NCBI GenBank assembly: GCA_018901675.1
Contig: JAHIEH010000067.1
Coordinates: forward strand, 1 to 33,408
Length of the DNA stretch: 33,408 bases
Reading direction: 5' to 3'
Origin: Nanobdellota archaeon
GTDB lineage: Archaea > Nanobdellota > Nanobdellia > Pacearchaeales > GW2011-AR1
Position 1 is the first letter of the stretch, and each line of letters starts with the position of its first letter. Under the pieces are notes generated by a model that saw only the letters and a program-made list of their open reading frames with translations, was not told where the DNA came from and did not search any database. The position numbers and the translations under genes are program-made. Positions 3,930-23,732 of this stretch are shown in pieces.

Positions 3930-3931
3930 CT

Positions 3932-5980: not shown

Positions 5981-6037
5981 TGTATAAGTGTATACAATAG
6001 AGTTTTTAAACTTTTCTGTGAATTCGTGTGATTGATG

Positions 6038-6232: not shown

Positions 6233-6295
6233 CGGGAAAGGTGCTAAATAATAAAAACATCACCTTAAAAAATAACAACTTTAATCCATCAATAC

Positions 6296-6487: not shown

Positions 6488-6715
6488 TTTTACCTCCTCT
6501 AAGCTTTTAACAAAAGATATATAAACTGTTACCACGTTCTTTTTTTATTGGTAAAAAGAGGGGCTTAGTTTCATTTCTTTTATTTTTAGTTTTTAGTATA
6601 AACTTAACCTTACATACTTTAGAAGTAATCAGAGAGATGAATCTCCGATCACCTCTCTTTTATAATCTATTTGGAATTAAACTATTTAAAAATATACGTT
6701 GTAGAGTGATATTTT

Positions 6716-9418
6716 TTATTTAATACTTTCTTCAACAATTTCTATTTCTTCGGGGGTTAAGCCATATAATTTATAGACTTCTTGATTTATCTCGTAGTTA
6801 ACATTATCAATTTGCTGTTTTAACCTTTCTTTTTCATTCCCTGATATTTTTTCATCATGATACTTTTTCTGGAGGTCTAACATTTGGTTTACTGAAGAGG
6901 TTATCTTTTGTTGTTGTTTTTCAGAGAGTTCTTTAGGAATAGGGATTTGCTTTGCATATGCTTCATAAAAATCCATAGATCTTATAGCATTTTGATAAAT
7001 AAATTTGTAAGTGTAATACTGAATCAAACTAGAGTTAAGTAAAGCTACAATAAATTCTTCTGAATATTTTTTATCTGAGACCAATATATTCGTCACAGTA
7101 TTAAATGAGAATAAACCTTCTCTATCAAATGCTACGGTTAATTTTATATGATCTTTAATATGCGCGACTATTCTTTGAGCAACAATGTGTGGTTGATAAA
7201 ACTTCTGCATCTCTTTTTTATACTTCTGCATCTCTTTATCTTGAGGATTATAATACTTACAACCACGTATAAACCATCTTTGGATATCATTTCCCCTCAA
7301 AACCTTAAGATAATCCTTCTTTTTTTCCTCAATAAAATTATCCATTCCTTGAATTCCTAAACCTAAAAAGATATGTGTAACATCCCCTAAACGTTTACCC
7401 TGAGTTTCTAATTTACGTTTAATTCCATAAGCTTTTTCATTAGACTCAAGATAAATCTTGTTATCTTTAATGCATATTTCTTGTTCTATTTGGGCAGTTT
7501 CTAAAATCTCTCGCATATCTTTGATTTCACCAATGATTATCTTATTTTTGGGTTTAAATTCGTTTTTGGTACAAAATATCACTTGTTCCAGTAATACCTC
7601 CTCAAATGCTTTACCAGCATCTACGACAGTTTTAAAACTGGTTTTTTCCAAGATTTCTTTTCTAACCTTACTCCAAGATTCAGTAAATGCTAACATTTTA
7701 GGGACGATCATTCCCATAAAACCATCCCTTTTAATTAATTTCAGTCCTTTATGAATAAAGACTGCAGATATATTCATCATACCGTCTTTAATCTCCTTAA
7801 AATCTGAGGTATTTTTTATCGGATCTCCTTCAAGAATCTTAAAATAGGGCGGATTACCAATCACAATGTCAAAACCACCTTGTTTGAAAACCTCTGGAAA
7901 TTGGGCATTCCAATTAAAAGCATGATCAGAAACTTTTATGTCATCAATCAACGAGTTTCCACATTTTACATTTGTTAAATTAGGAAGCTTGGAAATTTTC
8001 GTATCTTGGTCTTCCTCTTCTAAAACTTTTAAAAGTAAATTCAATCGTGCAAGCTCTACTGCTTTTTCATCTAAATCCACCCCATAAATACAATTTGTTA
8101 ATATGGTTATTTTTTGAGACAGATTCAATCTTTGATTATAACCCTTAAAAGTACTCCATTTTTCAGATTTATTACCATTCTTCAAAAGTTCTTCAATTTT
8201 GTTGATAACTTCTTGAAAGGCTCTTATTAAAAAACTTCCACTCCCACAAGTAGGATCAACGATTTTAACTTGAAGTATTTCATCTAAGGACTTATTCTTT
8301 AAATATTCTCCAACAGTATTCTTGATAATATAATCCACAATATAAGAAGGAGTATAATAAATCCCCATTTTTTTTCTTTTTCCAGTCTTATCATCAAGTT
8401 TTACTCTTTTTTCTGTCCCCTCCAAGATTGTCCCAAGATATTGTTCATAAATACTTCCAAATAAATCTCCAGGAATTATATCAAACATATATTTGTCCTG
8501 ATTTCCTTCTACACCAAAATACAAAGCCAATATAACTTTTCTTAGAACATCATCAGAGAACGTTCCTTCTTTCTCTAACAATCCCTGCTCAAATAACTTA
8601 GAATCGTACTTTTGATTAAAGTAAACGAATTTTTCTAGTAAATATGGAAAAAGCTGTAATTTAGTTATTTGTTGTCTGACATCCGCTTCAAGACTTTTTA
8701 GATAATATAGTGCTTCTAATCCTCTGTCTTCAACAGACCTTATAAAAATTAATCTATCAATAAATATCTGGACTATCTCATCAATTTTTTCTTTCTCTAA
8801 ATAATTCTTCTTCTGTTTTATTTCTTTAGAGAGCCATTCTCTTATTTTTAATAAATCCTGTAAAAGTGATTCATCGATTGGTTTACTTAACTTTTCATCT
8901 TTTGTCGAAAGAAGATTGTTTATCTCTTTTTTTTCAAAACTTTCTCTAGAAAGAAGCCAAAGAGTATCGAATTTATCAATAAATTCCTTAAAATTTATTC
9001 TGAAGTAATCATTATTGTGGCGTAAAAGATTCTTATCTATATTCTTTATATTTGAAAGAGCATGATAAACCCTAATATCTTTAAAATTTGTCAAGACAGC
9101 AAATTTTATTTTTCTATGATATGCATAAGAAACTGCTTGTTTACCTGCATCTTCGTCTAAGAGCACATTAGTCTTTTTAGCTTCAATAACTAAAACTTCT
9201 TGATTAGCAATTTTTAAAATATAATCTGCCCTACCTTTCAAAACTCTTGGTTCTTTTTGAACCTCTTTTCTATCCCAACCTAATATCTCTTCAAATAATG
9301 GTTCTATAAATTGATGTTTAATATCTTCTTCTGGTTTAGACTCCCAATATTTCTGTCCTTCTGAAAATTGTTTGACTAATTCCCTAAGTTTTTCTTTAGC
9401 TTCTTCTTTATTTATCAT
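6716..9418 (-). CDS. Single-chain type IIG restriction-modification enzyme (Eco57I/MmeI-like: nuclease + N6-adenine methyltransferase + specificity region)
   Basis: 900 aa. N-terminal PD-(D/E)XK-like motif GRADYILK...VLVIEAKK. Methyltransferase motif I is DPTCGSGSFL, preceded by GIYYTPSYIV. Motif IV is GNPPYF. A long C-terminal region follows, as in TaqI-like target-recognition domains. Confidence 0.87.
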   Translation of the reverse strand: MINKEEAKEKLRELVKQFSEGQKYWESKPEEDIKHQFIEPLFEEILGWDRKEVQKEPRVLKGRADYILKIANQEVLVIEAKKTNVLLDEDAGKQAVSYAYHRKIKFAVLTNFKDIRVYHALSNIKNIDKNLLRHNNDYFRINFKEFIDKFDTLWLLSRESFEKKEINNLLSTKDEKLSKPIDESLLQDLLKIREWLSKEIKQKKNYLEKEKIDEIVQIFIDRLIFIRSVEDRGLEALYYLKSLEADVRQQITKLQLFPYLLEKFVYFNQKYDSKLFEQGLLEKEGTFSDDVLRKVILALYFGVEGNQDKYMFDIIPGDLFGSIYEQYLGTILEGTEKRVKLDDKTGKRKKMGIYYTPSYIVDYIIKNTVGEYLKNKSLDEILQVKIVDPTCGSGSFLIRAFQEVINKIEELLKNGNKSEKWSTFKGYNQRLNLSQKITILTNCIYGVDLDEKAVELARLNLLLKVLEEEDQDTKISKLPNLTNVKCGNSLIDDIKVSDHAFNWNAQFPEVFKQGGFDIVIGNPPYFKILEGDPIKNTSDFKEIKDGMMNISAVFIHKGLKLIKRDGFMGMIVPKMLAFTESWSKVRKEILEKTSFKTVVDAGKAFEEVLLEQVIFCTKNEFKPKNKIIIGEIKDMREILETAQIEQEICIKDNKIYLESNEKAYGIKRKLETQGKRLGDVTHIFLGLGIQGMDNFIEEKKKDYLKVLRGNDIQRWFIRGCKYYNPQDKEMQKYKKEMQKFYQPHIVAQRIVAHIKDHIKLTVAFDREGLFSFNTVTNILVSDKKYSEEFIVALLNSSLIQYYTYKFIYQNAIRSMDFYEAYAKQIPIPKELSEKQQQKITSSVNQMLDLQKKYHDEKISGNEKERLKQQIDNVNYEINQEVYKLYGLTPEEIEIVEESIK

Positions 9419-9489: not shown

Positions 9490-10125
9490 TCACCCCAGTA
9501 ATTTCTCAAATTTAGCTTTATTATCCATGTAAAATGAATAGATTTCCTTATTTATATCTTTTTTTCCAGAATTTAACGTTATTAACAAGCCATAAAGCCA
9601 TAAAAATTTATCTAAATCTTCAAAAGATACACCAATAAGAGAATTTTCCTTTCTAAACCTTTCAATTCCATCCAAGAAGTTTTGATAAGTTCTGGTGTCT
9701 TTCCATCCAATTAGTTTACTTAGTGCAATGCAGACATACTTATCATATAATGGATACCTTATTTTATTATGAAAATGACAGAATTTACTTGCAAAAGACA
9801 GCAGATTTTTGCCTATACATTTAGATATTTTATCTACTGCATGAGGAGAACCTTGTTTTAACATTTCATCAAGTTTTTCGATCTTTGTAATATGTTCTGC
9901 CACTGCAATCTGATCCTTGAGATTAGTTTTGTATAAAGAGTCTATAAGAATTACTTTCATCAATATTACTTCTTTGTTATTATTTAGAGGATTCTTATTA
10001 AAATAATTAGTCAAAGTAGAATTTGCAAGATTCCATTTGGGAAGTTTTGAGTATATTTCTTTTGCAATTTCTATTTTTTTATCTTCTAGCATTTGACAAA
10101 ATTTTATAATAGTTTTCCCCTCCAA
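9490..10125 (-). CDS. Uncharacterised protein, family X (paralog of 13979..14641)
   Basis: Shares the block LSFASKFCHFHNKIRYPLYDKY with SLASKYLHFHVPIFPIYDSR in 13979..14641. It overlaps the 3' end of the nucleotidyltransferase gene. The start is uncertain (TTG 10125 or ATG 10092). Confidence 0.55.
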   Translation of the reverse strand: MEGKTIIKFCQMLEDKKIEIAKEIYSKLPKWNLANSTLTNYFNKNPLNNNKEVILMKVILIDSLYKTNLKDQIAVAEHITKIEKLDEMLKQGSPHAVDKISKCIGKNLLSFASKFCHFHNKIRYPLYDKYVCIALSKLIGWKDTRTYQNFLDGIERFRKENSLIGVSFEDLDKFLWLYGLLITLNSGKKDINKEIYSFYMDNKAKFEKLLG

Positions 10126-10675
10126 AAACTATCAAATGTTTATTTAAGGATTCATTTAAAATGTTTATTTGTTCTCTTTTTGAAAACATTTCGTAGGCAC
10201 TTTCTTTTCCTAAAACATTTAAGTCTAATTTAAAAGAAAAATTGGAGGCAATATTTTTGATTATTCCTTCAATTTGTTCAACTTTATTTTGTTTGTCTAA
10301 GATTATTATCATATCTAAATCATTAAATTTCTTTTTTTCTGCAAAAGAGCCAAAAATTAAAAATATAAAAAAATCTTCATTTATTTCTTTTAAGCAGTCT
10401 TTGATGAATAAAGAAACAGATTTTTCTTTTGCTATAGAATTTTTAGTTCTTAATGATTCTGCATATGAGAGTTCTGCGATATTTTCTTTATAGTTAAGAG
10501 AGAGGAGTTTTTTCTCATCTGACAGAATAAACCTGTCTTTTATTAGCTCCTGCATTGACCTATGAATTAGTGCATAAGGTTTTTTCAAAACTCCAGCAAC
10601 TTCATTTATACTAAATTTTTTATCTATTCTTGAAACAAAGATTTTCATTATTTCGATTTGTGTTTTTGTTAGCAT
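10079..10675 (-). CDS. wHTH-fused minimal nucleotidyltransferase (MNT/Pol-beta fold)
   Basis: 198 aa. N-terminal winged helix (FSINEVAGVLKKPYALIHRSMQELIKDRFI). Nucleotidyltransferase signature LIFGSFAEKKKFNDLDMIIILD (GS...DxD). Confidence 0.7.
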   Translation of the reverse strand: MLTKTQIEIMKIFVSRIDKKFSINEVAGVLKKPYALIHRSMQELIKDRFILSDEKKLLSLNYKENIAELSYAESLRTKNSIAKEKSVSLFIKDCLKEINEDFFIFLIFGSFAEKKKFNDLDMIIILDKQNKVEQIEGIIKNIASNFSFKLDLNVLGKESAYEMFSKREQINILNESLNKHLIVFGGENYYKILSNARR

Positions 10676-10713: not shown

Positions 10714-11040
10714 TTAGTCATATTTAAATTTTGTGGTTTTTACGAATGTTTTCATCTTACAACTTCCCTCTCCTTCCTCTCTTTCTTCCCCCCTCCCCCT
10801 CACCTCACCCATAAACTTACCGCAAACTTCGCAAACAATGCATCTCTTGCCATTAATGATTTTTCCTTCAAAATGAGCGCAGCAGCAACCGCTATGGAAA
10901 AATGTTGCTTCTTTATTGCAAAGCTTGCATTTTTTAGCTGGTTTAATTGCTTTAGCTGTTTTTGTCGTTTTGGTTGTTTTTTGTTTCTTATTTCTTTTTG
11001 TCATCTTCAATTTCTCCCTTTTGCTCAAGCTTACACTCAT
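10714..11040 (-). CDS. Basic N-terminus plus Cys-rich zinc-ribbon-like small protein
   Basis: The ATG at 11040 overlaps the AAA+ gene stop as ATGA. An alternative ATG at 11004 sits in the conserved TTGAAGATGA context. Lys/Thr-rich basic tract, then CKLCNKEATFFHSGCCCAHFEGKIINGKRCIVCEVCGKF. The C-terminus reads into a purine-rich repeat. Confidence 0.4.
   Translation of the reverse strand: MSVSLSKREKLKMTKRNKKQKTTKTTKTAKAIKPAKKCKLCNKEATFFHSGCCCAHFEGKIINGKRCIVCEVCGKFMGEVRGRGEEREEGEGSCKMKTFVKTTKFKYD
10998..11040 (-). repeat. Junction element copy L3
   Basis: Minus strand reads ATGAGTGTAAGCTTGAGCAAAAGGGAGAAATTGAAGATGACA. It aligns by eye with copies at 12406 and 15581 (about 32 of 38 nt, with one indel). 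Confidence 0.75.
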
Positions 11041-12311
11041 TTTATACTCCTTGCGGAATTCATCGCTAAAAGCCATTTCCAAACAGGCTTTATAATTATC
11101 TTCTTGCCATTTATATTTTCTTCGCCTTCTTTATCTAATGTAAGAATAATCCCTTCTTTAAGAGTATATTTCTGCATAGCTTCCAAAAGACCTTCGATTT
11201 CTCTCTTTTTTGTCATAGGGCTCTCTAAATTTAGACAAACCTGAATTGCCTGAGTTATTTTTAGCCCTTTTTTAACAATAAAATCACATTCTTTTTTGCC
11301 TAAATGATAATAAACTTCGAAACCTTCTTTTAACAATTCTATAAAAACTAAATTTTCTAGTCTTTGCCCCCTATTTTCTATAAAGTTAAATGCGACTGTT
11401 TTAAGAAAGCTATTGTCTAAAACATAAAATTTAGATGAAGAAACCTGTTGTTTTTTTAATGAATAATCAAATCTATTGATAGTTGAAGCGAGAAAAACCC
11501 CCTTCATATATTCAATGTAATTTTTTATCATGCTTAAACTCTTTATTCCAGAAATTATCTTTAAAGTAGAATAAGAATAAACTTTGCCCACATTTGAAAA
11601 AAGATATAAGATAAGATCTTTAATCTCCTTTGTTTTTTTAATGTGATATCTTTGAATTATATCCTTATTAAGTATGTCTTCAAAATATTGTTTGGACAAT
11701 TCCAAATCATTGTTCTTTATTACTAAAGGGAAGCCCCCCTTTTCAAAATACTCTTCAAAGGCGCCCATCAAAATTATTCTTTCATTAGAAGTTTTTGGAT
11801 TTTCTTGAATGTTTTTAAACCTTAAAAATTCTTTAAATGAAAAAGGGTATAGTCTTAGAACTTTATTTCTTCCTGTTAAAAATGTTGAGATTTCTGAACT
11901 TAATAAACTTGAATTTGAGCCGGTTACAAAAACTTTTATTTTTTTGGCAAAGAGGTTATTAACCCATCTTTCCCAAGAAGGAATGTTTTGAATTTCATCA
12001 AAAAAAAACACAACCTCAGACCCAATGCTATGCAATTCTTTAGCAAAGTCTTCTATATCCTGAAAATTTTCAATCTTAAAGTCTGTAAATCTGACATCAT
12101 CAAAGTTTATGTAAATCTTTTTTTTATTGATTTTATTGGAAATAATCTTTAAGAGGGTGCTTTTTCCGCATCTTCTTATGCCACTTATGATTACAATTTC
12201 ATTTCCTCTTAAATAAGGCTCTAAGGATATTTCTCTTTCTATTAACTCTTCTTCCTTATTGAATAGTTCTTGTTGTTCATTCAAAAGTTCATATAATTTT
12301 GTTTTTTCCAT
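11037..12311 (-). CDS. AAA+ superfamily ATPase of the COG1373 / DUF4143 type
   Basis: 424 aa. Walker A is SGIRRCGKSTLL and Walker B is VVFFFDEIQ. The C-terminal restriction-endonuclease-like module (KECDFIVKKG...AIQVC) is typical of DUF4143 ATPases. Confidence 0.8.
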   Translation of the reverse strand: MEKTKLYELLNEQQELFNKEEELIEREISLEPYLRGNEIVIISGIRRCGKSTLLKIISNKINKKKIYINFDDVRFTDFKIENFQDIEDFAKELHSIGSEVVFFFDEIQNIPSWERWVNNLFAKKIKVFVTGSNSSLLSSEISTFLTGRNKVLRLYPFSFKEFLRFKNIQENPKTSNERIILMGAFEEYFEKGGFPLVIKNNDLELSKQYFEDILNKDIIQRYHIKKTKEIKDLILYLFSNVGKVYSYSTLKIISGIKSLSMIKNYIEYMKGVFLASTINRFDYSLKKQQVSSSKFYVLDNSFLKTVAFNFIENRGQRLENLVFIELLKEGFEVYYHLGKKECDFIVKKGLKITQAIQVCLNLESPMTKKREIEGLLEAMQKYTLKEGIILTLDKEGEENINGKKIIIKPVWKWLLAMNSARSIK

Positions 12312-12405
12312 GATTTCTATTGTCTTTGAGAGTTTATAAACCTTTCTTTGTAATTTAATAACTCTTTATAAACATATGTTAAATGGAAATTAACTATATG
12401 GTTTC

Positions 12406-12445
12406 TTATTCATCTTCAATATCTCCCCTATTGCTCAAACTAACA
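12406..12445 (-). repeat. Junction element copy L1
   Basis: The plus-strand 18-mer TTATTCATCTTCAATATC is identical to 15581-15598. About 33 of 38 nt match overall. It encodes the last 12 codons plus the stop of the Nudix gene. Confidence 0.85.
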
Positions 12446-12861
12446 TCCCCTAAAATACTGACCAATTTTTCCTTGCTATCTATACTTTCATCCCAATCAA
12501 TTTGCTCTATAAACTTTTCCTTGGAAAGCCACCTAAACTCTGTATGCTCTCCGCTTAGCTTAGGTATCGCTTCTTTAACTTTGATAAGAAATGCTCTTTC
12601 TTTGTGCATCTTGCCAGAATTCTTTGGCCATTCATATTCCCCAAGATAATCTGTTTTTTTAATTTCTAATATCTCTAATCCTGTTTCTTCTTTTACTTCT
12701 CTTCTTATTGCTTTCTCTTCACTTTCATTCTTCTCAACACTTCCAGTAACAACAAACCAAATATCTACTTTAAGCCATTTAGGGTTTGTTCTTAGAATTA
12801 AAAAATTTCTTTTATCAGAATAAATTATTGCCATAATCTTTGGATTGGTTTTGTTATTCAT
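12406..12861 (-). CDS. Nudix hydrolase
   Basis: Nudix box GSVEKNESEEKAIRREVKEETGLE. I place the start at ATG 12861 (MNNKTNPK), preceded by GGAGG. The track extension to 12972 is read-through of a purine-rich repeat. The C-terminal tail VSLSNRGDIEDE is encoded by the junction element. Confidence 0.8.
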   Translation of the reverse strand: MNNKTNPKIMAIIYSDKRNFLILRTNPKWLKVDIWFVVTGSVEKNESEEKAIRREVKEETGLEILEIKKTDYLGEYEWPKNSGKMHKERAFLIKVKEAIPKLSGEHTEFRWLSKEKFIEQIDWDESIDSKEKLVSILGDVSLSNRGDIEDE

Positions 12862-12935
12862 CTTCAATACCTCCTCTCTTCCCCAAACCTCCTCTCTTTT
12901 AATAACCTTTTTGTAACCCCCTCCCTTAATCTTAG
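12854..12935 (-). repeat. Junction-core copy L4 fused to a purine-rich tract
   Basis: TTATTCATCTTCAATA lies at 12854-12869. Upstream on the minus strand is GGGAGGGGG...AGAGAGGAGGTTTGGGGAAGAGAGGAGG. It provides the Nudix gene start context. Confidence 0.7.
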
Positions 12936-13016: not shown

Positions 13017-13916
13017 ATGGGAGATGAAAAGAAAGAGAATCAAAAAGATGAACAAGAAGGCGAAAATACACATATAGCTATTTTTAATGGAAAAGCTATA
13101 AGAAGAAAACTTGTTGGTGATAAATGGTTCTTTTCAGTTGTTGATATTATCCGGGTTTTGACTGATAGTGTTGACCCAAAAGATTATTGGTATAGGTTAA
13201 AAGTAAGAGAGAAAGAATCTTCAGAAATTGAGCTATCGACATTTTGTCGACAACTGAAGCTCAAATCAGGAGACGGGAAAGAGTACGAAACAGATTGCGC
13301 AGACACAGAAGGTATATTCAGAATAATTCAATCAATTCCTTCAAAAAAGGCAGAGCCGTTTAAAAGATGGCTTGCAAAAGTTGGTTATGAAAGAGTGCAG
13401 GAAATTGAAAACCCAGAACTTGCACAAGAAAGAATGAAAAATCTTTATGAGCAAAAAGGATATTCTAAAGACTGGATTGAAAAAAGATTAAGAGGAATTG
13501 CTATAAGGCAGGAGCTGACAGACGAGTGGAAGAATAGAAAGATAAAAGAAGAGAAAGAGTTCGCAATCTTAACAAATGAAATAAGCAAAGCAACTTTTGG
13601 AAAAACAGTTGAAGAGTATAAGAATTTTAAGAAACTAAAAAGAGAAAATTTAAGAGATCATATGGATGATTTAGAATTAATTTTTAGTATGCTTGGAGAG
13701 GCAGCAACTACTAGAATTACTAAAACAAAAGATACTCAGGGTTTTGGAGAAAATAAAATTGCAGCCAGACAAGGTGGAGAAGTTGCTGGAAATGCAAGAA
13801 AAGAGCTTGAATTAAAAACAGGAGAGAGTGTTCTTAATGAGGATAATTTTTTAAATCTTCCAGAAAAACTAAAGAAAAAAAGGAAGAAACTCCTTGAACA
13901 AGTAGAGATTATTTAA
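13017..13916 (+). CDS. Bro-N domain protein (prophage antirepressor / DinD-like family)
   Basis: The N-terminal Bro-N pattern is IAIFNGKAIRRKLVGDKWFFSVVDIIRVLTDS. The downstream block PFKRWLAKVGYERVQEIENPELAQERMKNLYEQKGYSKDWIEKRLRGIAIRQELTDEW is typical of this family. Confidence 0.75.
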   Translation: MGDEKKENQKDEQEGENTHIAIFNGKAIRRKLVGDKWFFSVVDIIRVLTDSVDPKDYWYRLKVREKESSEIELSTFCRQLKLKSGDGKEYETDCADTEGIFRIIQSIPSKKAEPFKRWLAKVGYERVQEIENPELAQERMKNLYEQKGYSKDWIEKRLRGIAIRQELTDEWKNRKIKEEKEFAILTNEISKATFGKTVEEYKNFKKLKRENLRDHMDDLELIFSMLGEAATTRITKTKDTQGFGENKIAARQGGEVAGNARKELELKTGESVLNEDNFLNLPEKLKKKRKKLLEQVEII

Positions 13917-13978: not shown

Positions 13979-14641
13979 TTATCTTTTGCCTACTTTCTTT
14001 TTATTTAACCTATCATTAGCATTTTTAATCAAAAATGTGTCAATCTCCCTTAAAGTCGGAGCTTTTCGAGAGTTATTTTTAATATAGTTGTAAAGAAAAA
14101 GGATTTTATTGCAGAATTTAAAATATTTTTCATCACATAAAAAATCAGCATCCTCTACTCTTCCAACCACTATCTTGTTTATAGAGCTGTTTGCTCTAGA
14201 GTCATATATTGGGAAAATTGGCACGTGAAAATGCAGGTATTTAGAAGCTAATGACCTCTTTTCTTTTCCTGTTAATTCTTTGAAAAATTTTGTGAGTTCT
14301 TTGTGGAGGATTAAGATGTCTTTTAATGTTTTTTCGTTAAATTCTTTATTTTTCAGCTTGCTTAATTTTTCATCAAATTTATTTTTACTATTGAATTTTA
14401 TAAACTCTTTAACAACATAATCATAAAAATCATCATTGATATGCTTTTTGTTTATTTTAGATCTCCTTTCAATTGATGCGGCATAAGACCTTCCAATAAG
14501 CAATATTTTTGCACGGATTTCTTCAGGATCTGTATGTGATGGATAATCTGAACACATTTTATATAAAATATTATTTCCAAGCATCCATTTTTTATCTTTC
14601 AAATTATTAAATTTCTTTACATCAAAATTTATTAGTTTCAT
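13979..14641 (-). CDS. Uncharacterised protein, family X (paralog of 9490..10125); last gene of the 4-gene operon
   Basis: 220 aa. Shared motif SLASKYLHFHVPIFPIYDSR. Its start overlaps the upstream stop as ATGA (14638-14641). Confidence 0.6.
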   Translation of the reverse strand: MKLINFDVKKFNNLKDKKWMLGNNILYKMCSDYPSHTDPEEIRAKILLIGRSYAASIERRSKINKKHINDDFYDYVVKEFIKFNSKNKFDEKLSKLKNKEFNEKTLKDILILHKELTKFFKELTGKEKRSLASKYLHFHVPIFPIYDSRANSSINKIVVGRVEDADFLCDEKYFKFCNKILFLYNYIKNNSRKAPTLREIDTFLIKNANDRLNKKKVGKR

Positions 14642-15147
14642 TTTACTTCCCCAAGATATAACATTCCCTTATGATTCTCTAAAAAATTTAGTCTAAAACT
14701 CTGTAATTGAGTTAAATTAGTAATTTTATTTAAATGATTTTCCCATAAATTTTTATTTGATTCTAAATCTAAAGGAAATACGATAAATAATACATATTTG
14801 GAGTCATAATCATTATTCTTTCTTAAATCATGAATATCTTTTATTATTCCATCTATATTCTTTGTAATTGGTCTAATTTTTCTAGTATAATCCTGTTGAT
14901 AATTTGTATTTATTGTCTTTAACTCAATCGCATAACTAAGAGATTTGTGTTTAAAGGTTATATCAATTCTTTCTTTTTCAGGAATTACTTCAGTACAACC
15001 CAACTTAATTGCAGAATCTACTATTTCTACTTTTAACCATCCCTCAAATTTAGAAATATTTTTTATAAACTCAGATATGCCTCTATGAGATTCTATTTTT
15101 CTTATTATATCTTTTATTATCTCGTTAAGTATCTCTTCTTCACTCAT
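14638..15147 (-). CDS. Restriction-endonuclease-like (PD-(D/E)XK) small protein
   Basis: 169 aa. Candidate catalytic signature EGWLKVE ... ERIDITFKHKSLSYAIELKT (E, D, ExK spacing). It lies 3 nt after the upstream gene. Confidence 0.45.
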   Translation of the reverse strand: MSEEEILNEIIKDIIRKIESHRGISEFIKNISKFEGWLKVEIVDSAIKLGCTEVIPEKERIDITFKHKSLSYAIELKTINTNYQQDYTRKIRPITKNIDGIIKDIHDLRKNNDYDSKYVLFIVFPLDLESNKNLWENHLNKITNLTQLQSFRLNFLENHKGMLYLGEVK

Positions 15148-15150
15148 CTT

Positions 15151-15588
15151 CTAAACCCCCCATTTCCTTACAACAACGCCTATAAAAGGCCGCTCATCAT
15201 TATATGGATCTTTTTTAGCATCAATTATCTCTACTTTCAGCTCTTTTATTTGATTTGAGTTATTGAAAGTTATTTTATCTAAAATAGAAATCACGCTTTC
15301 TGAAATATCCAAAATATTAGCAGATAAGTCTCCGAGATAGCAACTTAAAACTATCTTTATTTCATCATTAAAGAATCTTTTCATGCCAGGAAATTGTGTC
15401 TTTGTTATTACTTGTCTAATAAATGTCTTTTCCTTGGATGTTAATTTTTTAAAAGATTTGGGTAAAACTTCTATAGGAAAAGCAAGATAGTCTTTATTTT
15501 TATCACACTTTGGAATAACTTCCACTACTTTTTCTACAATTTCTTTATTCTCTATCAATTCTTCGATATTATTATCTTTTTTATTCAT
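15151..15588 (-). CDS. Hypothetical protein, no recognisable domain
   Basis: The track start is TTG 15594. The ATG at 15588 (MNKKDNN) sits inside the junction element and overlaps the 3' end of the nuclease gene by 8 nt. Confidence 0.5.
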   Translation of the reverse strand: MNKKDNNIEELIENKEIVEKVVEVIPKCDKNKDYLAFPIEVLPKSFKKLTSKEKTFIRQVITKTQFPGMKRFFNDEIKIVLSCYLGDLSANILDISESVISILDKITFNNSNQIKELKVEIIDAKKDPYNDERPFIGVVVRKWGV

Positions 15589-15620
15589 CTTCAATATCCC
15601 TTCTCTTGCTCAGACTAATT
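15581..15620 (-). repeat. Junction element copy L2
   Basis: Minus strand reads AATTAGTCTGAGCAAGAGAAGGGATATTGAAGATGAATAA. It encodes ISLSKRRDIEDE plus the stop of the nuclease, and in the +1 frame the ATG of the next gene. Confidence 0.85.
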
Positions 15621-16768
15621 CTCCAATCTTTCTCTATCTTAACCTTATCTTTAATTTCATCCTCAATTTCTCCCCTGAGAACTTTGCTGTTAAGCTTTGG
15701 ATAGCAAACCATTGAGCATTCCTCATAGATACCTTTGTCTTTCATCAGCTTTATGAAAGCTTCTTTGTCTTTTCCCTCAGGCATAACAATTTTGTCAAAC
15801 TCCTTAACAGATGCTTTTGCATTGCTCCCATAAATAACATCAATTCCTTTTTGCTTGGCAAACCCAATTAACTTGGTTCTTAATTCATCTTGTGTTTCTT
15901 CTAGTTCAGAAAGCTTAGCTTTAACCTCTGCAAACTCATCAACAAATTTCACTCCTTGATCTTCTTTAAATTCTTCAACTGGTTTTTCTTCTATTTCTGC
16001 AAGATGCTTGAAACTCGGGCACTCTGATTTATAACCACACCAATCGCATAATTTTGTAGTGTTTGTAGGAAAATCATTCTCTTTAGTTGCTTCTTCTATT
16101 TCCTGGATAGTTTCCATAACCTCTTGCTGCAATTCCTTAAGCTGTTCGTTTGTTCTCTCGCTGGTTATCTCTTTATCAAAAGCAAGCATATGCCATTTTA
16201 AGATAACTTTTTTAGCATCCTTGAATTTATCTTTAACCCATATAGAATACATTGCTAATTGCCTGTCTGAATCAGCTTCTTCTTGCAGCTTTATTCTTGC
16301 ATTTGTCTTATAATCACAGACAAAATAAGTATCTCCTTTGCATCCTAACTTGTCTATCCTTACATGCCAGGAATTTCCATCAGGCAAAGTCAACCTGTCT
16401 TGAGTTTCTAATCCAAGAATTGTCATGTCATCATCTTTATGAGAATCATAATAATCGGAAATATATTTCTCCCCCATTTTCCTGTAATTATCAGCTTTAA
16501 GCCCTTCATCTTCTTTAGCAATTAAAATGTCATCAGAATACTCTTTTTCCCATAAATCCCTGTAAAATTTTATTAGAATTTTCTTTTCAACCCTTTTCTT
16601 AAATTTCTTATCCTTGTATAGCTTTTCCAGGGTTTGATGCACTAAATCACCCATAAAAGCTTCAATTGTAGTCTCTATTTCAGGTTTAATTTTATCTATA
16701 TAATGAAGCTTATACTGATACGGGCATGTTTCAAAAGTGTTTATTCTTGAATTTGAGTATGTTGCCAT
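15581..16768 (-). CDS. Cas4/AddB-like PD-(D/E)XK nuclease with 4-Cys Fe-S cluster motif and about 130-aa C-terminal extension
   Basis: The N-terminus SRINTFETCPYQYKLHYI supplies the first Cys. Nuclease motifs are HVRIDKL...YFVCDYKT and QLAMYSIW. The C-terminal Cys triad is CDWCGYKSECP. No cas1, cas2 or CRISPR array lies nearby. Confidence 0.75.
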   Translation of the reverse strand: MATYSNSRINTFETCPYQYKLHYIDKIKPEIETTIEAFMGDLVHQTLEKLYKDKKFKKRVEKKILIKFYRDLWEKEYSDDILIAKEDEGLKADNYRKMGEKYISDYYDSHKDDDMTILGLETQDRLTLPDGNSWHVRIDKLGCKGDTYFVCDYKTNARIKLQEEADSDRQLAMYSIWVKDKFKDAKKVILKWHMLAFDKEITSERTNEQLKELQQEVMETIQEIEEATKENDFPTNTTKLCDWCGYKSECPSFKHLAEIEEKPVEEFKEDQGVKFVDEFAEVKAKLSELEETQDELRTKLIGFAKQKGIDVIYGSNAKASVKEFDKIVMPEGKDKEAFIKLMKDKGIYEECSMVCYPKLNSKVLRGEIEDEIKDKVKIEKDWRISLSKRRDIEDE

Positions 16769-17514: not shown

Positions 17515-18699
17515 ATGGGAGATATATGTAATTTTATGCAAGTAAATGCCGAAAATACTGAAAAATCTTATGCTTATTCTAATGATTTTCAGATTTCTAC
17601 ACAAATGAAAAGCTGGATGGCTATAAATCCGAGTTATGGATGTCCATGGGATTGTGTTTATTGCATACAACATAAAGATAAATTTTTTGATATGTCACAA
17701 TATAGGAAGGTGCATAAGGTAAAAATAGAAGGAGAACTATGCACTCCAGAAGATATAGTAACCGAGATAATGATCAATCCCAGAATTACTTCCAGAACCC
17801 CCATAGTTCTTTATAATTTTACAGACCCTTTTTTGCCTCAAAATACTCGTGACCTTGAAAATACCTTAAGTCTTCTAGATAAAAGAAAATTTACAAATAT
17901 TATCGGCTTAATTACAAGAACCTTTGCAGACACGGATACTTTGGATGTTATAGCAGATTTGAAGTATCTAAGACCTATTGTTATGGTCTCCTATGCAGGA
18001 TATGATAATGTGGAAATTGAGAGGGGCCCACTAAATAAAAGGATAGAACTTGTTAAAGAGCTAAAAGATAGAAAAATTAAAACCCTTCAGTATCTTAGGC
18101 CGATAGCTAAAGAATGGTTGGAAGAAGATCAGTTCAAAAAAGCTAGAGATGCAATAGGCCATTTAGTTGATGGAGTAGTAATGTCCGGAATAAGATTGAC
18201 TCCAGAGATAATTGCTAAGATAAATGCTAGAAGACTGCCTGTTCCAGAAGTAACTAATTTTACAAATAAATTTTTCCCAAAGGATTTACAAGAAAAGATT
18301 ATGGAGATCTATCAAGGATTTGCTCCAGTGTATCGATATACTAGTTGTGCGGTTTCATCTACTTTTGGAGTTCCAGATTATAATGCTCACCTGGGATTTT
18401 TTAAAGAAACGCAAAATAAAGAGTTTGTGGTATGCCCTCTACCATGCAATGGAGATCAAACCAAGATATGTAATAACATTTCTTTTGATGAATCGAGATT
18501 TAAATCTTTACTTAAAAGAATAGGGCATCCAGACTTAAAGTTCGCAAGAACAACTTCCGGTGCAATAATGTTAGATAAAGAATTATCCAAATATGACTTA
18601 AGTTTTCTTAGGCATAATACCTCTTGTCATATAGATTACATTGGTAATAAACATCATATTGATCAGGTTATAAACATGGAGGTTCAATCCCAAAAATGA
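17515..18699 (+). CDS. Radical SAM enzyme, spore-photoproduct-lyase/COG1533-like context
   Basis: CxxxCxxC at 17641-17664 (CPWDCVYC), within INPSYGCPWDCVYCIQ. This resembles the NPYxGCxHxCxYCYA signature of SplB-like DNA-acting radical SAM proteins. 394 aa. Confidence 0.75.
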   Translation: MGDICNFMQVNAENTEKSYAYSNDFQISTQMKSWMAINPSYGCPWDCVYCIQHKDKFFDMSQYRKVHKVKIEGELCTPEDIVTEIMINPRITSRTPIVLYNFTDPFLPQNTRDLENTLSLLDKRKFTNIIGLITRTFADTDTLDVIADLKYLRPIVMVSYAGYDNVEIERGPLNKRIELVKELKDRKIKTLQYLRPIAKEWLEEDQFKKARDAIGHLVDGVVMSGIRLTPEIIAKINARRLPVPEVTNFTNKFFPKDLQEKIMEIYQGFAPVYRYTSCAVSSTFGVPDYNAHLGFFKETQNKEFVVCPLPCNGDQTKICNNISFDESRFKSLLKRIGHPDLKFARTTSGAIMLDKELSKYDLSFLRHNTSCHIDYIGNKHHIDQVINMEVQSQK

Positions 18700-19952
18700 T
18701 ATTTGCAAGCCTGGATTTAAATAAAAAACATTTAGACAAATTTTTATTTTCTTTGGAGGGCATAAAAAGCTGTAGATTTGATGGGGTGGAAATATGTCTA
18801 TGGGAAGACATGAATAGATTTTCTGCCCAAATAGAAGAAGCGCTTTCAGGTGAAGGTTTGAAATCTAATATCCATGGAGATTTAATGAGAATAGAAGAGG
18901 GTATGGAGAATTGCGAACAAAAATTGCAATATAGTTTACAATTCAAGAAAAGCATTAATGCTCTTAACTTAATCAGCCATCCAATAAAACCCTATACTCT
19001 TAATCTAAATGCTTCCAAAAAATTGATGGGAAAATTTAGAGAAGAGATACTTCTTGAAAATGTTAGGGGGGTTAGAAAGGCAGAAATTGACTTTTTGGAT
19101 ATGCCTATTGTGTTAGATATTGGAAATCTTGCCCTTAATGGAGAGGAAGAGCAGATATCTTCGTATATTAAACGAGTACATTGGACCCATATTCACGATT
19201 ATAAAAATAAAATAGATCACCTTCCTTTGGGGGAAGGGGATTTAAATCTAAATGAGGCATTAAAATACCTTAGTAAAATCGGATTTACAATAGAGTTGGG
19301 TTCAGTATTTCGAGAATGGTCCCAACTAAAAGAAGGATATAAACATTCAATAGATTACCTCAATAATGCATTAATTTCTAATGAAAGCTATGGTAAAAAT
19401 GTGAGATTAATGCATTTACTTAATCATATAGGTAAAGAAAAATTTGGCAATGTAATTGATATTGGTTGTGGTGAGGGGTATTTATTGCATAATATTGATG
19501 CAAAAGTCAAAAAAGGTTACGACCTTTCTCCAAAACAAATTTTTAATGATGTTCTTTATATACAACAGGATATCTGTTCGCCTTTAGCAGAAAGTGCTGA
19601 TTTAGCAATATGTAGTGAAGTAGTAGAGCATTTATCCAATGATCTATCGTTATTTAGAAATATGTATAATAGTCTTATACCCTCTGGAAAAATATTTTTA
19701 ACTACTTTAAATCGTAACACTTCGCAGGATAAATCTGAGGTGGATGAAGAAAGAGGTCATTTGAGGAGGTATGGTAGTGAATTAGAAGGAATTCTTCAAA
19801 CATGTGGATTTAAAGCAATTTCTTTCTACCCCTTTAGAAGCGAGCATTATTATAACACTAATCGTAATTTTGGATTATATAACTTAGATGAGGATGTTTT
19901 GCAAGGAAGCAAAAATGCTTCTGGATGGGTTTATTTTGGAGTTAAAGAATAA
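18696..19952 (+). CDS. Fusion protein: xylose-isomerase-like / AP-endonuclease-2 TIM barrel + class I SAM-dependent methyltransferase
   Basis: Its start overlaps the radical SAM stop as ATGA. N-terminal half: FDGVEICLW, ISHP, LLENV, LDIGN, WTHIHDY...HLPLGEGDLNL, FTIELG (TIM-barrel metal-site pattern). C-terminal half: motif I VIDIGCGEGYLL and motif DLAICSEVVEHL. Confidence 0.65.
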   Translation: MIFASLDLNKKHLDKFLFSLEGIKSCRFDGVEICLWEDMNRFSAQIEEALSGEGLKSNIHGDLMRIEEGMENCEQKLQYSLQFKKSINALNLISHPIKPYTLNLNASKKLMGKFREEILLENVRGVRKAEIDFLDMPIVLDIGNLALNGEEEQISSYIKRVHWTHIHDYKNKIDHLPLGEGDLNLNEALKYLSKIGFTIELGSVFREWSQLKEGYKHSIDYLNNALISNESYGKNVRLMHLLNHIGKEKFGNVIDIGCGEGYLLHNIDAKVKKGYDLSPKQIFNDVLYIQQDICSPLAESADLAICSEVVEHLSNDLSLFRNMYNSLIPSGKIFLTTLNRNTSQDKSEVDEERGHLRRYGSELEGILQTCGFKAISFYPFRSEHYYNTNRNFGLYNLDEDVLQGSKNASGWVYFGVKE

Positions 19953-19954
19953 AA

Positions 19955-20458
19955 ATGAAAGATTTAATTTTTATTGGTGGAGCAAAAGGAGTAGGTAAAT
20001 CAACCGTATTAGAATATCTAAAAAAACATGTTCAAATAGAAGTGGTAAATACAGGGGACCTTTTTACAAAATCGAAACAGAATGGATTAAACCCTGAAGA
20101 GGCAATAAAAGCATATCTAATTGATGTCCACAATGGTATGGTAGATACACATTATGCAGGAGGATATTCTGTAGGAAAATTCTCTAGAGGTTTATCTAGA
20201 GAAAATCTTTTAAGGATTGCAAGTGTAAAATCTATAGATTTAATTTTATTTGATTTAGATAAAAAAACTCTTTTTAAGAGAAGGTGTGGGAACAAAGAAG
20301 AAAAGTACCAAGATGTAAACTTAATCGATCTAGAACTTAAAAAAAGTAGGGAATATTTTAGGCAATATTGCGAAGATTTATTAATATCAGGACTTGTAAT
20401 TGATAATATTGATTTAGACAGAACAATGGAACTTGTTCTGGGGAGAATATATGAGTGA
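19955..20458 (+). CDS. Small P-loop kinase-like protein (adenylate/nucleoside-kinase-like fold)
   Basis: 167 aa. The Walker A motif GGAKGVGKST sits at the extreme N-terminus, with size and layout like small nucleotide or metabolite kinases. It starts 2 nt after the upstream stop. Confidence 0.55.
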   Translation: MKDLIFIGGAKGVGKSTVLEYLKKHVQIEVVNTGDLFTKSKQNGLNPEEAIKAYLIDVHNGMVDTHYAGGYSVGKFSRGLSRENLLRIASVKSIDLILFDLDKKTLFKRRCGNKEEKYQDVNLIDLELKKSREYFRQYCEDLLISGLVIDNIDLDRTMELVLGRIYE

Positions 20459-20900
20459 AGAAAAAATTAGAAAGCAGTTTATAATTGTTAAAAGCTTAGT
20501 TATAAATGATAAGGGGGAAGTGCTTTTTGTTAGAAGGAAAAAAGAAGACTTGAAGCAAGCCCATAATAAATGGGAGTTTCCGGGAGGCAAGATAGATTTT
20601 GGAGAGTCTCCAGAACAAACTGCGATACGTGAGGCAAAGGAAGAGTCTAATTATGACGTTAAAATAGATTATCTCCTCACAAAAATTTTATCTTCAAAAT
20701 GGGAATCTCCTGAAAGAGAAGCTCAACAAATTTTAATTTGTTATGTTTGCACCCTTGTTGGTGGTGAAAGCGCTTTAGGGGATCATGGGGTTAGTGAGAT
20801 AAAATGGTTTAAGGTAAATAATGCCCCGAAAGATCAAGATTGTTTGCCTGGAACAATAGACTTTCTAAACCTTTATAAGAAAACTGTAGAGCAAAAATAG
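20451..20900 (+). CDS. Nudix hydrolase
   Basis: Nudix box GGKIDFGESPEQTAIREAKEESNY. The ATG at 20451, preceded by GGGGAG, overlaps the kinase gene by 8 nt. Confidence 0.8.
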   Translation: MSEEKIRKQFIIVKSLVINDKGEVLFVRRKKEDLKQAHNKWEFPGGKIDFGESPEQTAIREAKEESNYDVKIDYLLTKILSSKWESPEREAQQILICYVCTLVGGESALGDHGVSEIKWFKVNNAPKDQDCLPGTIDFLNLYKKTVEQK

Positions 20901-20916
20901 AATTTTATAATATTAA

Positions 20917-22152
20917 ATGATACTAGATAATTTACTTTCCTACAAACCAGAAGAAGCATTGATTTTTTTAGAGAGAAAAATGAATAATGAGAATTTTGGA
21001 TCAAATGTTCAGGAGACTTACAGGCCTGATGGACCATGTGGGGGATTTGATATTCCTTTTGTACTGCTGAAAAAAGAGGGGGTAATCCATTTCCAAAATG
21101 CTCCTGACACTAAACTCCTTACTCTATTAGAGACTGAAGATGAAATAAAATTTTTCTTGCATCCTGAAATGATTTTAGATTATAAAAGTAAAAATATGGC
21201 TCATTTGGAGAATATTGCTGGTTCGGTGCGCGTCTTTCCCACTTCGTCTACAAGAACAGTTATTGCACTTGGGGGAGGTTATCCATATATGATTAAGACA
21301 GATCTTGTGAGGAGGATTGGCGATGGTGTTAAAAGATTAAAAAGATCCCATTTAGATCATATAAAAGAAATTGGGAAGGATCTTGAAGAGGTATCTATAA
21401 ATAATTTTGGATATCTTCCAGAGTCGTTAGGACTACTTTTTTCTTCTTGCAATGAAGAGGTAGGAATGGTGATAAGGGAATTTTATGCAAGACCAAGAAT
21501 TTATGAAGGAACATATCTTATACCCTTTTTCTCTCTTTTTTCTAAAGACCCTGCTTCTAAAGATGATCCTATCCTACTAAAGCAACTATTAAACAAACAA
21601 AATGATGAACATAACGAGATAGACTCGTGTCTAGAGAGAATTATTATCCCTTATGTTGAATGCTGGATGCAATTGATTTCTCAAAGGGGTTTATGTGCTG
21701 AAATGCATGCTCAAAATACCCTTCTTGAAGTAGATAAATATGGGATGCCCCTTAGGGTAATTTATCGAGATTTGCAAGATACATTCGTAGATTTAGATAT
21801 AAGGGATCAAAGGGGCTTAAAAAAAGATTTTAATAAAGGGATTATTGGTGAAAATGAAAGGCTATACCTCGTTAAAAAGACTCCAATTAAGGATAGAGAG
21901 AGGTGCAAGCAAATTTCTTATAGTCTGACATATGATTATCGGATGGCCAGAGCACTTGATTATTTTGTAGAGGCATTTAAAACAGAATACTCTGATGCAG
22001 AAGATCGAATTGTATCTGGAATAAAAAATATCTGGAATAAAAATTTTAGAGGAATGGATATTTTACCTACAAAAGCTTATCTTTTAGAAAAAAAACAGCC
22101 TAACATTGGAAAAGAACTACATTTTATTGAAGCTGATCCAAAATACCGGTAA
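20917..22152 (+). CDS. Short IucA/IucC-like (NIS-synthetase-type) ATP-dependent ligase
   Basis: 411 aa. It has FFLHPEMI (compare the HPWQ motif), FPTSSTRTV (the SxRT motif), YMIKTDL, and CAEMHAQNTLLEV followed by VIYRDLQD (the H-x-Q-N motif of the family). It is shorter than canonical members of about 600 aa. Confidence 0.5.
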   Translation: MILDNLLSYKPEEALIFLERKMNNENFGSNVQETYRPDGPCGGFDIPFVLLKKEGVIHFQNAPDTKLLTLLETEDEIKFFLHPEMILDYKSKNMAHLENIAGSVRVFPTSSTRTVIALGGGYPYMIKTDLVRRIGDGVKRLKRSHLDHIKEIGKDLEEVSINNFGYLPESLGLLFSSCNEEVGMVIREFYARPRIYEGTYLIPFFSLFSKDPASKDDPILLKQLLNKQNDEHNEIDSCLERIIIPYVECWMQLISQRGLCAEMHAQNTLLEVDKYGMPLRVIYRDLQDTFVDLDIRDQRGLKKDFNKGIIGENERLYLVKKTPIKDRERCKQISYSLTYDYRMARALDYFVEAFKTEYSDAEDRIVSGIKNIWNKNFRGMDILPTKAYLLEKKQPNIGKELHFIEADPKYR

Positions 22153-23368: not shown

Positions 23369-23374
23369 TCTATT

Positions 23375-23436
23375 AATAATTGATTAATACTTTCTTAATA
23401 GGTTTAATAATTGATTAATACTTTCTTAATAGGTTT
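23375..23436. repeat. Perfect 31-bp tandem duplication (2 units)
   Basis: AATAATTGATTAATACTTTCTTAATAGGTTT occurs at 23375-23405 and again at 23406-23436. Unit 2 contains the last 7 codons and stop of the RelE-like gene. Confidence 0.95.
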
Positions 23437-23732
23437 TCTAGATACTTTTTAAATTCTGGAAGATATTTTATAATTTCCTCGATTGTCTCCTGTTGGGCTT
23501 TCTTCCCCCCTAAAGCAACAATCAAAACAGCAGATAAATCATCGTAGACAAGATAGTAAATTCTTTTTTCTCGCATTCTCTTTTCGCGAAAAAAACGATA
23601 CCTCGTTTGATCTCCAACATATGGGTTTTCCTTAAGCTGAAGAAATATCTTTTTAATTATCTCCTTGTCTGAGCTAGAAAGTTTATTCATCTCTTTTTCA
23701 AAGCTTTCAGTAGCATAAACTGCATAAGCCAT
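23415..23732 (-). CDS. RelE/ParE-family toxin-like protein
   Basis: 105 aa. It has SFEKEMNKL, LKENPYVGD and KRIYYLVYDDLSAVLIVALGGKK, the family pattern. It is convergent with, not co-transcribed with, the AbrB gene. Confidence 0.65.
   Translation of the reverse strand: MAYAVYATESFEKEMNKLSSSDKEIIKKIFLQLKENPYVGDQTRYRFFREKRMREKRIYYLVYDDLSAVLIVALGGKKAQQETIEEIIKYLPEFKKYLENLLRKY

Follow-up and report, generated by a model that had tools for sequence, protein, structure and literature searches.

Most DPANN archaea are reported to encode solo-Cas4 nucleases without CAS-Cas4 (Hudaiberdiev et al. 2017, PMC5704561), and the phyla for which attC clusters have been reported include Nanoarchaeota (Ghaly et al. 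2022, PMC9668308). Here, a window of 33,408 nt (the whole stretch of contig JAHIEH010000067.1 that was analysed, from a metagenome-assembled genome of a nanoarchaeote within DPANN with a G+C content of about 32%) was examined for the origin of four adjacent minus-strand genes, g1 to g4, the first of which encodes a solo-Cas4-like nuclease. An earlier note on this DNA had proposed that the four genes act as one multi-component defence system or derive from a captured viral or plasmid recombination module. With a probability of roughly 0.7, the locus is not a four-component system but part of a defence or variable island of a DPANN archaeon (Nanoarchaeota), in which accessory genes that move independently lie downstream of a solo-Cas4-like gene. 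Like described defence islands and integration hotspots, the locus and its relatives hold a variable set of restriction-modification (types I, II, IIG, and III), GmrSD, nucleotidyltransferase, ATPase, and orphan nuclease genes, and the variable genes lie beside a conserved gene with a content that differs in each related genome. Unlike those islands, the accessory genes here are joined in register to the anchor gene at its 3' end and thereby translationally coupled to it, and an approximately 42-nt copy of the junction stands at the borders of the cassettes.

The first gene, g1 (15581..16768, minus strand, 395 aa), encodes the solo-Cas4-like, RecB-family nuclease and is taken as the resident anchor gene. 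It is followed on the same strand by g2 (15151..15588, 145 aa from the ATG at 15588; the open reading frame [ORF] counted from a TTG spans 15151-15594), g3 (14638..15147, 169 aa, a stand-alone PD-(D/E)XK-type protein), and g4 (13979..14641, 220 aa, from a large uncharacterised single-domain family that is all-helical in the predicted model). The recorded hypothetical proteins KKA64_03795, KKA64_03790, and KKA64_03785 are identical to g2, g3, and g4, respectively. The ATG at 15588 is more likely the start of g2 than the TTG at 15594. The g1/g2 overlap reads ATGAATAA and measures 8 nt, or 14 nt when counted from the TTG, and at this junction (…GAAGATGAATAA) the g2 ATG lies inside the final codons of g1. 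Between g2 and g3 there is a 3-nt gap (TAG-aag-ATG), and g3 and g4 share an ATGA overlap. The ORF list and the reading of the sequence thus agree with the four tightly joined minus-strand ORFs described in the earlier note. Since no space is left for internal promoters and a TATA-like box (TATAAAT) lies approximately 40 nt upstream of the g1 start, the g1 promoter most likely drives a common transcript of all four genes, and the proposed operon coupling stands in this sense. Translation of g2 to g4 would proceed by coupling through the overlapping stop and start codons and their embedded purine-rich Shine-Dalgarno sequences. Stop/start overlaps with an embedded Shine-Dalgarno sequence also join unrelated genes in this lineage, so coupling alone is no evidence for a shared function. 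The GC content of g1 (0.338) is like that of the CTP synthase, thermosome, and RadC genes, and that of g2 to g4 (0.24-0.28) is like that of the other island genes.

Co-occurrence of the four families had been set beforehand as the test that could refute a four-gene system. It was surveyed by tblastn (E ≤ 1e-3) at 80 g4 loci from one-per-species reference genomes and 80 g3 loci from metagenomes, with flanks of up to 8 kb, and the four families were not found together. Among the g4 loci, neither g3 nor g2 was found (0/80 each), and g1 was matched at a single locus (1/80), as a g1-like fragment on the other strand; the g3 loci contained g1 in 3/80 cases and g4 fragments in 2/80. When the immediate neighbours were clustered, the largest cluster held 3 of 133 proteins for g4 and 5 of 110 for g3. 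Recurring partner families were also not found by Pfam scans of same-strand neighbours within 60 bp, in which any one shared family reached at most 2/45 and 3/37, respectively. The neighbours include defence-type genes or domains (Mrr, RE_endonuc, RhuM, WYL, DUF4145, prokaryotic STING, CAP12-TIR, SduA_C, HerA, ParD, and integrase) as well as housekeeping ones (ArgJ, AhpC, GreA, and MotB), and distant g3 homologs in Nitratiruptor and Thermococcus aggregans stand alone amid metabolic genes.

The families come together in just a handful of close relatives, and there the set is reshuffled. The three best-matching g3 loci (L094-L096; g3 65-67% identical) seem to be close relatives of the window. 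In L006 and L007, g1 (42%) is followed by g2 (80%), a gene for a 110-aa protein, and a helix-turn-helix gene. L008 carries a small P-loop ATPase gene, g2 (80%), g4 (79%), and an NgoPII restriction-modification system, and L009-L011 carry g1 (66%), g3 (85%), a gene for a 175-aa protein, and a type III restriction-modification system. In L004, the order is g1 (77%), genes for proteins of 173 aa and 168 aa, g3 (67%), GmrSD, MazG, a g4 fragment, and a type I restriction-modification system; in L005 and L012, g4 (80-83%) occurs without g1 to g3. Restriction-modification genes thus lie beside the reshuffled sets in L008, L009-L011, and L004. The identities of adjacent genes are discordant as well, with 42% for g1 against 80% for g2 in L006 and 66% for g1 against 85% for g3 in L009. 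The L006 values, compared with the adjacent g1 and g2 of the window (15151-16768), imply that lineages have recombined at the g1/g2 junction or close to it. Taken together, the lack of co-occurrence, the reshuffling, the discordant identities, and the base composition argue that g1 is resident and that g2, g3, and g4 are independent accessory genes with rapid turnover. We infer that these three were inserted successively at the junction just downstream of g1. As a separate observation, L009 contains two tandem type III restriction-modification methyltransferase genes (2676-6708; 692 and 656 aa) with identical 3' ends (…EDQELTSKFYGGKD before the stop), so the starts of the two genes that come next are preceded by the same 48 nt, which indicates that mod genes were duplicated or swapped recently.

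These data bear most directly on the proposal that the four genes form one anti-mobile-element system of two nucleases and two accessory subunits. Such a system would fit the tight translational coupling, the location in a defence island (near type IIG restriction-modification, PDC-S01 ATPase, and PDC-M05A-like nucleotidyltransferase genes, a setting that the earlier note had rightly recognised), the conserved catalytic residues of g1 and g3, and the occurrence of g1, g3, and g4 in the same order in L004. Against it, co-occurrence is absent beyond close relatives, g3 and g4 have no recurrent partner, every related locus examined has a different gene combination, g2 is an ORFan with 11 homologs, g2, g3, and g4 have no significant PADLOC match, and coupling with an embedded Shine-Dalgarno sequence also joins unrelated genes of the lineage. 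The four-gene system was not upheld: in the light of the co-occurrence survey it stands largely refuted already and is considered very improbable.

Some observations weigh against the preferred reading of one resident gene with independent accessory genes. The window and L004 share the order of g1, g3, and g4, and g2 and g4 are adjacent in L008; at 65-85% identity, shared ancestry and shared function are confounded, so the genes may cooperate functionally in this lineage. The metagenome contigs carrying g3 are often short (17 of 74 have no upstream and 21 of 74 no downstream neighbour), which makes the absence of partners there weaker evidence, and tblastn at E ≤ 1e-3 would overlook very divergent PD-(D/E)XK or analogous partners. 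The probable co-transcription, in turn, is deduced solely from the missing intergenic space and the TATA-like box upstream of g1.

The assignment of g1 was made using profile searches and an alignment of 40 divergent members (31-47% identity). The protein matches PF12705 (PDDEXK_1) with 99.7 bits (cut-off 22), residues 4-251 covering profile positions 2-247 of 247, and it also matches the phage exonuclease families phrog_69 (1.6e-28) and phrog_1218. Matches to Cas4 models are below threshold (TIGR00372, 44.5 bits against a cut-off of 65), and PF01930 is absent among the Pfam matches of g1. The hallmarks on which the earlier note had based its Cas4-like assignment, namely an N-terminal Cys, D…DYK, QxxxY, and CX2CX5C, were confirmed, and all are invariant in the 40 relatives. 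The invariant residues of the family are C15, H44, D139, D152, Y153, K154, Q170, Y174, C241, C244, and C250. Of these, D139, D152-Y-K154, Q170, and Y174 make up the D…D/ExK and QxxxY motifs expected of Cas4, and the N-terminal C15 with CX2CX5C (C241, C244, and C250) makes up a four-Cys module predicted to hold an Fe-S cluster. An exhaustive search gave 3619 representative clusters matching g1, 316 of them at E ≤ 1e-30 and mostly over the full length. Most of the best 150 of the 3619 representatives are 380-415 aa long and can be aligned with almost the whole of g1, so that the C-terminal stretch of approximately 140 residues belongs to the family as such; the charged tail of 130 aa noticed earlier is therefore present, and it is a family trait and not extra. 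Many divergent members visibly end in the same native C-terminus, R-[LIV]-S-[LIV]-S-K-R-K-D-x-E-E. Where the sources name relatives, they do so as 'PD-(D/E)XK nuclease family protein [Candidatus Nanoarchaeia]' or 'putative RecB family exonuclease', and searches of PDB sequences with g1 and with its tail alone gave nothing meaningful.

Judged from its sequence, g1 is a CRISPR-independent, solo-Cas4-like nuclease of PF12705, typical of the DPANN lineage and of a kind already known. Like the solo-Cas4/PF12705 nucleases described in DPANN and the Candidate Phyla Radiation (PMC5704561), it has RecB-type PD-(D/E)XK motifs and a four-Cys Fe-S module, and like the solo-Cas4 of DPANN, it lies in a DPANN genome outside any CRISPR-cas locus. 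No CRISPR-like array and no cas1 or cas2 were found by the profile and repeat scans of the whole window and its ORFs, as had been stated before. Unlike solo-Cas4, g1 scores below the curated Cas4 cut-off and fits best to PF12705, which that paper covers only briefly, and it has the conserved C-terminal region of approximately 140 aa that ends in R-[LIV]-S-[LIV]-S-K-R-K-D-x-E-E. By analogy with characterised Cas4/AddB-type enzymes, the role of g1 would be the processing of DNA ends or of single-stranded DNA, whether for repair, for recombination, or to degrade foreign DNA.

The constant position of g1 ahead of changing genes allows another explanation, in which g1 is a chassis and whichever variable gene is coupled to its 3' end (such as g2, g3, or the gene for the 173-aa protein) would be an exchangeable partner for sensing or specificity. 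At the four distinct close-relative loci where the g1 3' end is seen (the window, L004, L006/L007, and L009-L011), and also in L096, the g1 stop codon is overlapped by the gene that follows; the C-terminal peptide is conserved throughout the family and is kept in frame on three unrelated downstream proteins, those of Nudix, L004_168 (the 168-aa protein), and L006_110 (the 110-aa protein). However, the partners are mutually unrelated and each is found without g1 too, and in L216, a 247-kb Nanoarchaeia contig, g1 (44%) has no coupled partner, the genes after it being a convergent PemK/MazE pair and hydrogenase genes. A chassis with exchangeable partners is thus considered unlikely.

The g1 3' end itself is repeated in the window. 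A junction element of approximately 42 nt from this end occurs in four copies in direct orientation (J1-J4, minus strand), which form the top direct-repeat family of the whole window (D1); a match of at least 29/36 was found in 0/100 shuffles. J1 (15577..15618) contains the last approximately 12 codons of g1 (…ISLSKRRDIEDE before the stop), the embedded ribosome-binding site, and the g2 ATG. J2 (12850..12891) is a degenerate copy that gives the ribosome-binding site and the ATG (12861) of a Nudix gene; it is 79% identical to J3 over 42 nt and matches J1 at 29/36 positions. J3 (12402..12443) is 86% identical to J1 over 42 nt, the final 18 nt of the two being identical, and forms the 3' end of the Nudix ORF (…VSLSNRGDIEDE before the stop), followed by a 7-codon remnant (MNKKPYS and stop). 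J4 (approximately 10990..11038) lies just past the stop of the ATPase gene and supplies the ribosome-binding site and ATG of a Zn-ribbon ORF (MTKRNKK…). The nhmmer E-values for J2 (1e-10) and J4 (1.3e-8) were obtained with a profile made from the four copies themselves. In every copy, a purine-rich Shine-Dalgarno sequence and an ATG open the next gene (g2, MNKK…; Nudix, MNNK…; MNKKPYS and stop; and MTKRNKK…). Since J2 and J3 flank the Nudix hydrolase gene (12406..12861, minus strand; PF00293, 2.9e-14), that gene is a bracketed unit of 448 bp, equal to the repeat spacing, and forms a single-gene cassette.

The junction encodes …SLSKRRDIEDE before the stop, and unrelated proteins share a C-terminal peptide: besides g1 and Nudix, the 168-aa protein of L004 ends in …VSLSKRKETGEE and the 110-aa protein of L006 in …VSLSKRKSEE. 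Bracketing pairs are also seen around these two genes, as a 42-nt junction pair in L004 (5464-5505 and 5967-6008; 79% identity, 503-bp spacing) and a weaker 21-nt pair in L006 (1590-1610 and 1915-1935; 325-bp spacing), and in L015 (at approximately 576) a remnant of the g1 tail lies directly ahead of a g4 homolog. Part of the junction similarity (K-R-K-D-x-E-E-E) is simply an in-frame reading of the Shine-Dalgarno sequence that coupled genes of this lineage have in common; the S-L-S codons and the DNA identity of the copies are not accounted for in this way. The nhmmer profile of the four window junctions gave no significant extra copy in 198 loci, and the 17 matches of the junction 18-mer in IMG/VR were all due to chance (the upstream 21 nt had at most 7/21 identities to J1, with no g1 homolog nearby). 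The junction DNA sequence is genome-specific, and the peptide-level remnant alone is shared between genomes.

The repeats around single genes suggest cassette insertion at the g1 junction. An integron was considered as a source, and this reading was rejected because the copies fold no better than shuffled sequences (DNA folding z-scores of about -0.9 to +0.5), so that the junction, having no hairpin potential, is not an attC site. The locus differs from integrons and CALINs (PMC9668308) in that its junction has no attC-like hairpin and consists of coding sequence from g1, and no match to IntI or another integrase family was found by the profile scans of the window. It is conceivable, though quite unlikely, that archaea capture cassettes by an undescribed mechanism that uses the approximately 42-nt junction as its recombination site and has an integron-like outcome but no attC hairpins or IntI. 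In such a mechanism, promoterless ORFs (Nudix, an LDcluster4-like gene, the gene for the 110-aa protein, and perhaps g2 to g4) would enter the junction in register, thereby gaining a ribosome-binding site and a start codon apiece and becoming coupled to a constitutively expressed resident gene, and the g1 nuclease itself might participate.

A second resident gene shows a comparable pattern. The 3' end of RadC (…DSVIIGGER…; 1531-1580, plus strand) recurs as partial copies ('GSIVLGGER') near 5.3 and 6.17 kb; the repeats lie at 1531-1580, 5301-5334, 6072-6130 (or 6097-6130), and 6167-6212 on the plus strand, beside G/A-rich tracts. The partial copies look like target duplications of the attachment-site (att) type that delimit inserted DNA. 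No recombinase was found between them, the unannotated ORFs at 3300-3944 and 3932-4978 having been searched. Direct repeats of a resident-gene 3' end inside the adjacent island, seen for g1 (J1-J4) and independently for RadC, resemble island accretion at the 3' ends of target genes (tRNA or protein att sites). The differences from that arrangement are that no integrase was detected, that the bracketed units are single small genes and not whole elements, and that the repeats also serve as ribosome-binding and start sites. The pattern is most economically read as repeated insertion of accessory DNA at the 3' end of each of two resident genes, with duplication of the target.

As these repeats recall the att-site duplications made by integrating elements, they also bear on the proposal that the locus is a viral or plasmid recombination module, in the form of an integrated provirus or plasmid with a Cas4-like exonuclease. 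The phrog_69 and phrog_1218 matches of g1 are in keeping with this proposal, as are the neighbouring Bro-N domain gene, which matches phrog_15286 (6e-91), and the presence of the g4 family on 25 IMG/VR contigs. The Bro-N gene (13017..13916, plus strand, convergent with g4; PF02498, 1e-8), which belongs to a virus-associated family, is nevertheless the sole clearly virus-associated gene of the window. Provirus hallmarks (capsid, portal, terminase, replication or replication-initiator, and integrase families) were not matched by any of the scanned window ORFs, IMG/VR yielded neither a close relative of g1 nor a member of the g3 family, g4 has no match in cultured phages or plasmids, the composition of g1 is core-like, and no RecT, Erf, or single-strand annealing protein-type recombinase gene lies beside g1. 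Housekeeping genes stand on both sides, with tRNA-Asp and RadC at one border of the window and CTP synthase, a thermosome subunit, and a presumably intron-containing tRNA at the opposite border. A captured viral or plasmid module is accordingly very unlikely, and this part of the earlier proposal was not sustained. A homolog of the Bro-N gene (52% identical) was also seen directly upstream of a g3 homolog in L128 (161-886), an unrelated metagenome contig.

Returning to the accessory genes taken to follow the resident g1, g2 has 11 homologs, all at least 65% identical and all on Nanoarchaeota-type contigs, and no family match was found in four profile libraries. It is a lineage-restricted ORFan, a young lineage-specific gene coupled to g1. 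By comparison, 144 homologs of g3 were found in archaea (Thermococcus and Bathyarchaeota) and bacteria (Nitratiruptor, Zixibacteria, Cloacimonetes, Chloracidobacterium, and Roizmanbacteria). Across 30 homologs from archaea and bacteria, the residues E35, E41, E57, D62, E75, and K77 and the block ELKTxNT…RPITxN do not vary, so the expected conservation of putative catalytic residues held for g3 as it did for g1. An AlphaFold2 (AF2) model with a predicted local distance difference test (pLDDT) score of 92.9 has helices at 35-48 and 94-110 and strands at 52-58, 61-67, 70-80, and 116-124. In this alpha-beta-beta-beta-alpha-beta arrangement, D62 opens strand 2 and E75-x-K77 lies on strand 3, as in the canonical PD-(D/E)XK core, and the independent E…D…ExK signature ascribed to g3 in the earlier note was thereby corroborated (E57/D62/E75/K77). 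In Foldseek searches, no match reached E ≤ 0.001; those found included Cas4 SSO0001 (E = 0.022), Hjc (E = 0.038, probability 0.82), and MGME1 (E = 0.041). No Pfam, NCBIfam, or PDB sequence match was obtained for g3, and in PADLOC-DB v2 it matched just PDC-M14B, not significantly (E = 0.0094, 13.5 bits). PDB profile searches with g3 and g4 gave spurious weak matches only (acyl carrier protein and KaiA), which were rejected. On conserved residues and the predicted model, g3 is a PD-(D/E)XK-type protein of an unnamed family spanning archaea and bacteria. It most likely acts alone and would cut DNA endonucleolytically with Mg2+, as a PD-(D/E)XK enzyme of the orphan restriction-like or the repair type.

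For g4, at least 1080 homologs were found in many bacterial phyla and in Woese- and Nanoarchaeota. No Pfam match was obtained with the Pfam copy searched, which did not contain PF27257; this family is precomputed on some of the homologs. The conserved motifs are IGRSYAAAIERR and KRSLASKYLHFH-P-FPIYDSRA, and approximately 15 polar residues are invariant (K45, R51, E58, R59, R60, D90, K128, R129, S130, K134, H137, H139, D147, R149, and D201), which points to an enzyme or a nucleic-acid-binding protein. The AF2 model (pLDDT 92, predicted template modelling score 0.90) is all-helical with ten helices, and Foldseek found nothing in the PDB or BFVD at E ≤ 1, so that g4 may have an undescribed all-helical fold, as far as a model can tell. 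PADLOC-DB v2 contained no significant match for g2 or g4, and 29 members of the g4 family had scattered single matches only (E ≥ 8e-4). With this, the structure modelling, Foldseek, and PADLOC checks proposed earlier for g3 and g4 were carried out and yielded confident models and no significant match. An HhH-GPD glycosylase was considered for g4 since the K128-R…D147 spacing (18 residues) is the same as that of K120…D138 in EndoIII. This candidate was rejected: hhalign against EndoIII (2abk sequence) gave a probability of 0.16%, and the best Foldseek match was MagIII at E = 5.6 with a template modelling score of 0.33. No HhH-GPD gene that could serve for a template profile was found in the collected loci.

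On the 25 IMG/VR contigs, relatives of g4 occur singly among tape-measure, tail, portal, and capsid genes. In this they resemble phage 'morons', solitary accessory genes without a conserved partner; the difference is that the g4 family has no known function, toxicity, or exclusion phenotype. Most likely, g4 acts alone, and in bacteria, archaea, and phages it behaves like a mobile accessory gene of the 'moron' type. A distant paralog lies in the window at 9490-10125 (minus strand; BLASTP E = 1e-5, 24% identity) and shares all 14 invariant family columns. It overlaps a gene for a winged helix-turn-helix-Pol-beta nucleotidyltransferase (10079-10675, minus strand), and the paralog coupled to a nucleotidyltransferase that had been reported earlier is therefore real. 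The nucleotidyltransferase scores 22.4 bits against Polbeta (1.4e-4; Pfam cut-off 26.9) and 13.4 bits against MntA (cut-off 60) and matches PDC-M05A at 1.7e-8; the paralog has no HEPN match. The paralog occupies the place usual for the HEPN partner of MNT-type nucleotidyltransferases, and a classical nucleotidyltransferase and HEPN pair was seen in L216 (19287-20511). The g4 family (family X) might be an alternative effector partner for the nucleotidyltransferase.

The remaining island genes on the minus strand are a type IIG restriction-modification enzyme gene (6716-9418; REase_MTase_IIG, 8e-108) and an ATPase gene (11037-12311) with AAA_14 and DUF4143 matches and a PADLOC match to PDC-S01 (1.2e-111). 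The Bro-N, Nudix, and restriction-modification neighbours listed in the earlier note were all recovered by profile matches, the restriction-modification gene being of type IIG. Divergent from g1, a compact same-strand cluster at 17515-22152 (plus strand) encodes a radical SAM enzyme, a methyltransferase-xylose-isomerase-like TIM barrel fusion, an AAA_17 kinase-like protein, a Nudix hydrolase, and an FhuF-like protein. The cluster could represent a pathway that modifies nucleotides or small molecules. A tRNA of 115 nt was found by Rfam at 26206-26320 (minus strand) and was unreported by ARAGORN; it is presumably an intron-containing archaeal tRNA. At 23373-23434, a 31-nt AT-rich unit (TTAATAATTGATTAATACTTTCTTAATAGGT) is present as a perfect tandem duplication that overlaps the start of the ORF at 23415-23732.

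As the four-component defence system was not upheld, effort on a false lead is saved. The locus is a clear example of how genes in a compact DPANN genome can be tightly coupled in translation and yet need not form a functional system. The g3 and g4 families, both well populated and unannotated, are candidates for single-gene defence or accessory functions. If general, splicing at the 3' end of a resident gene via a repeated coding junction would explain the recruitment and expression of promoterless genes in reduced archaeal genomes.

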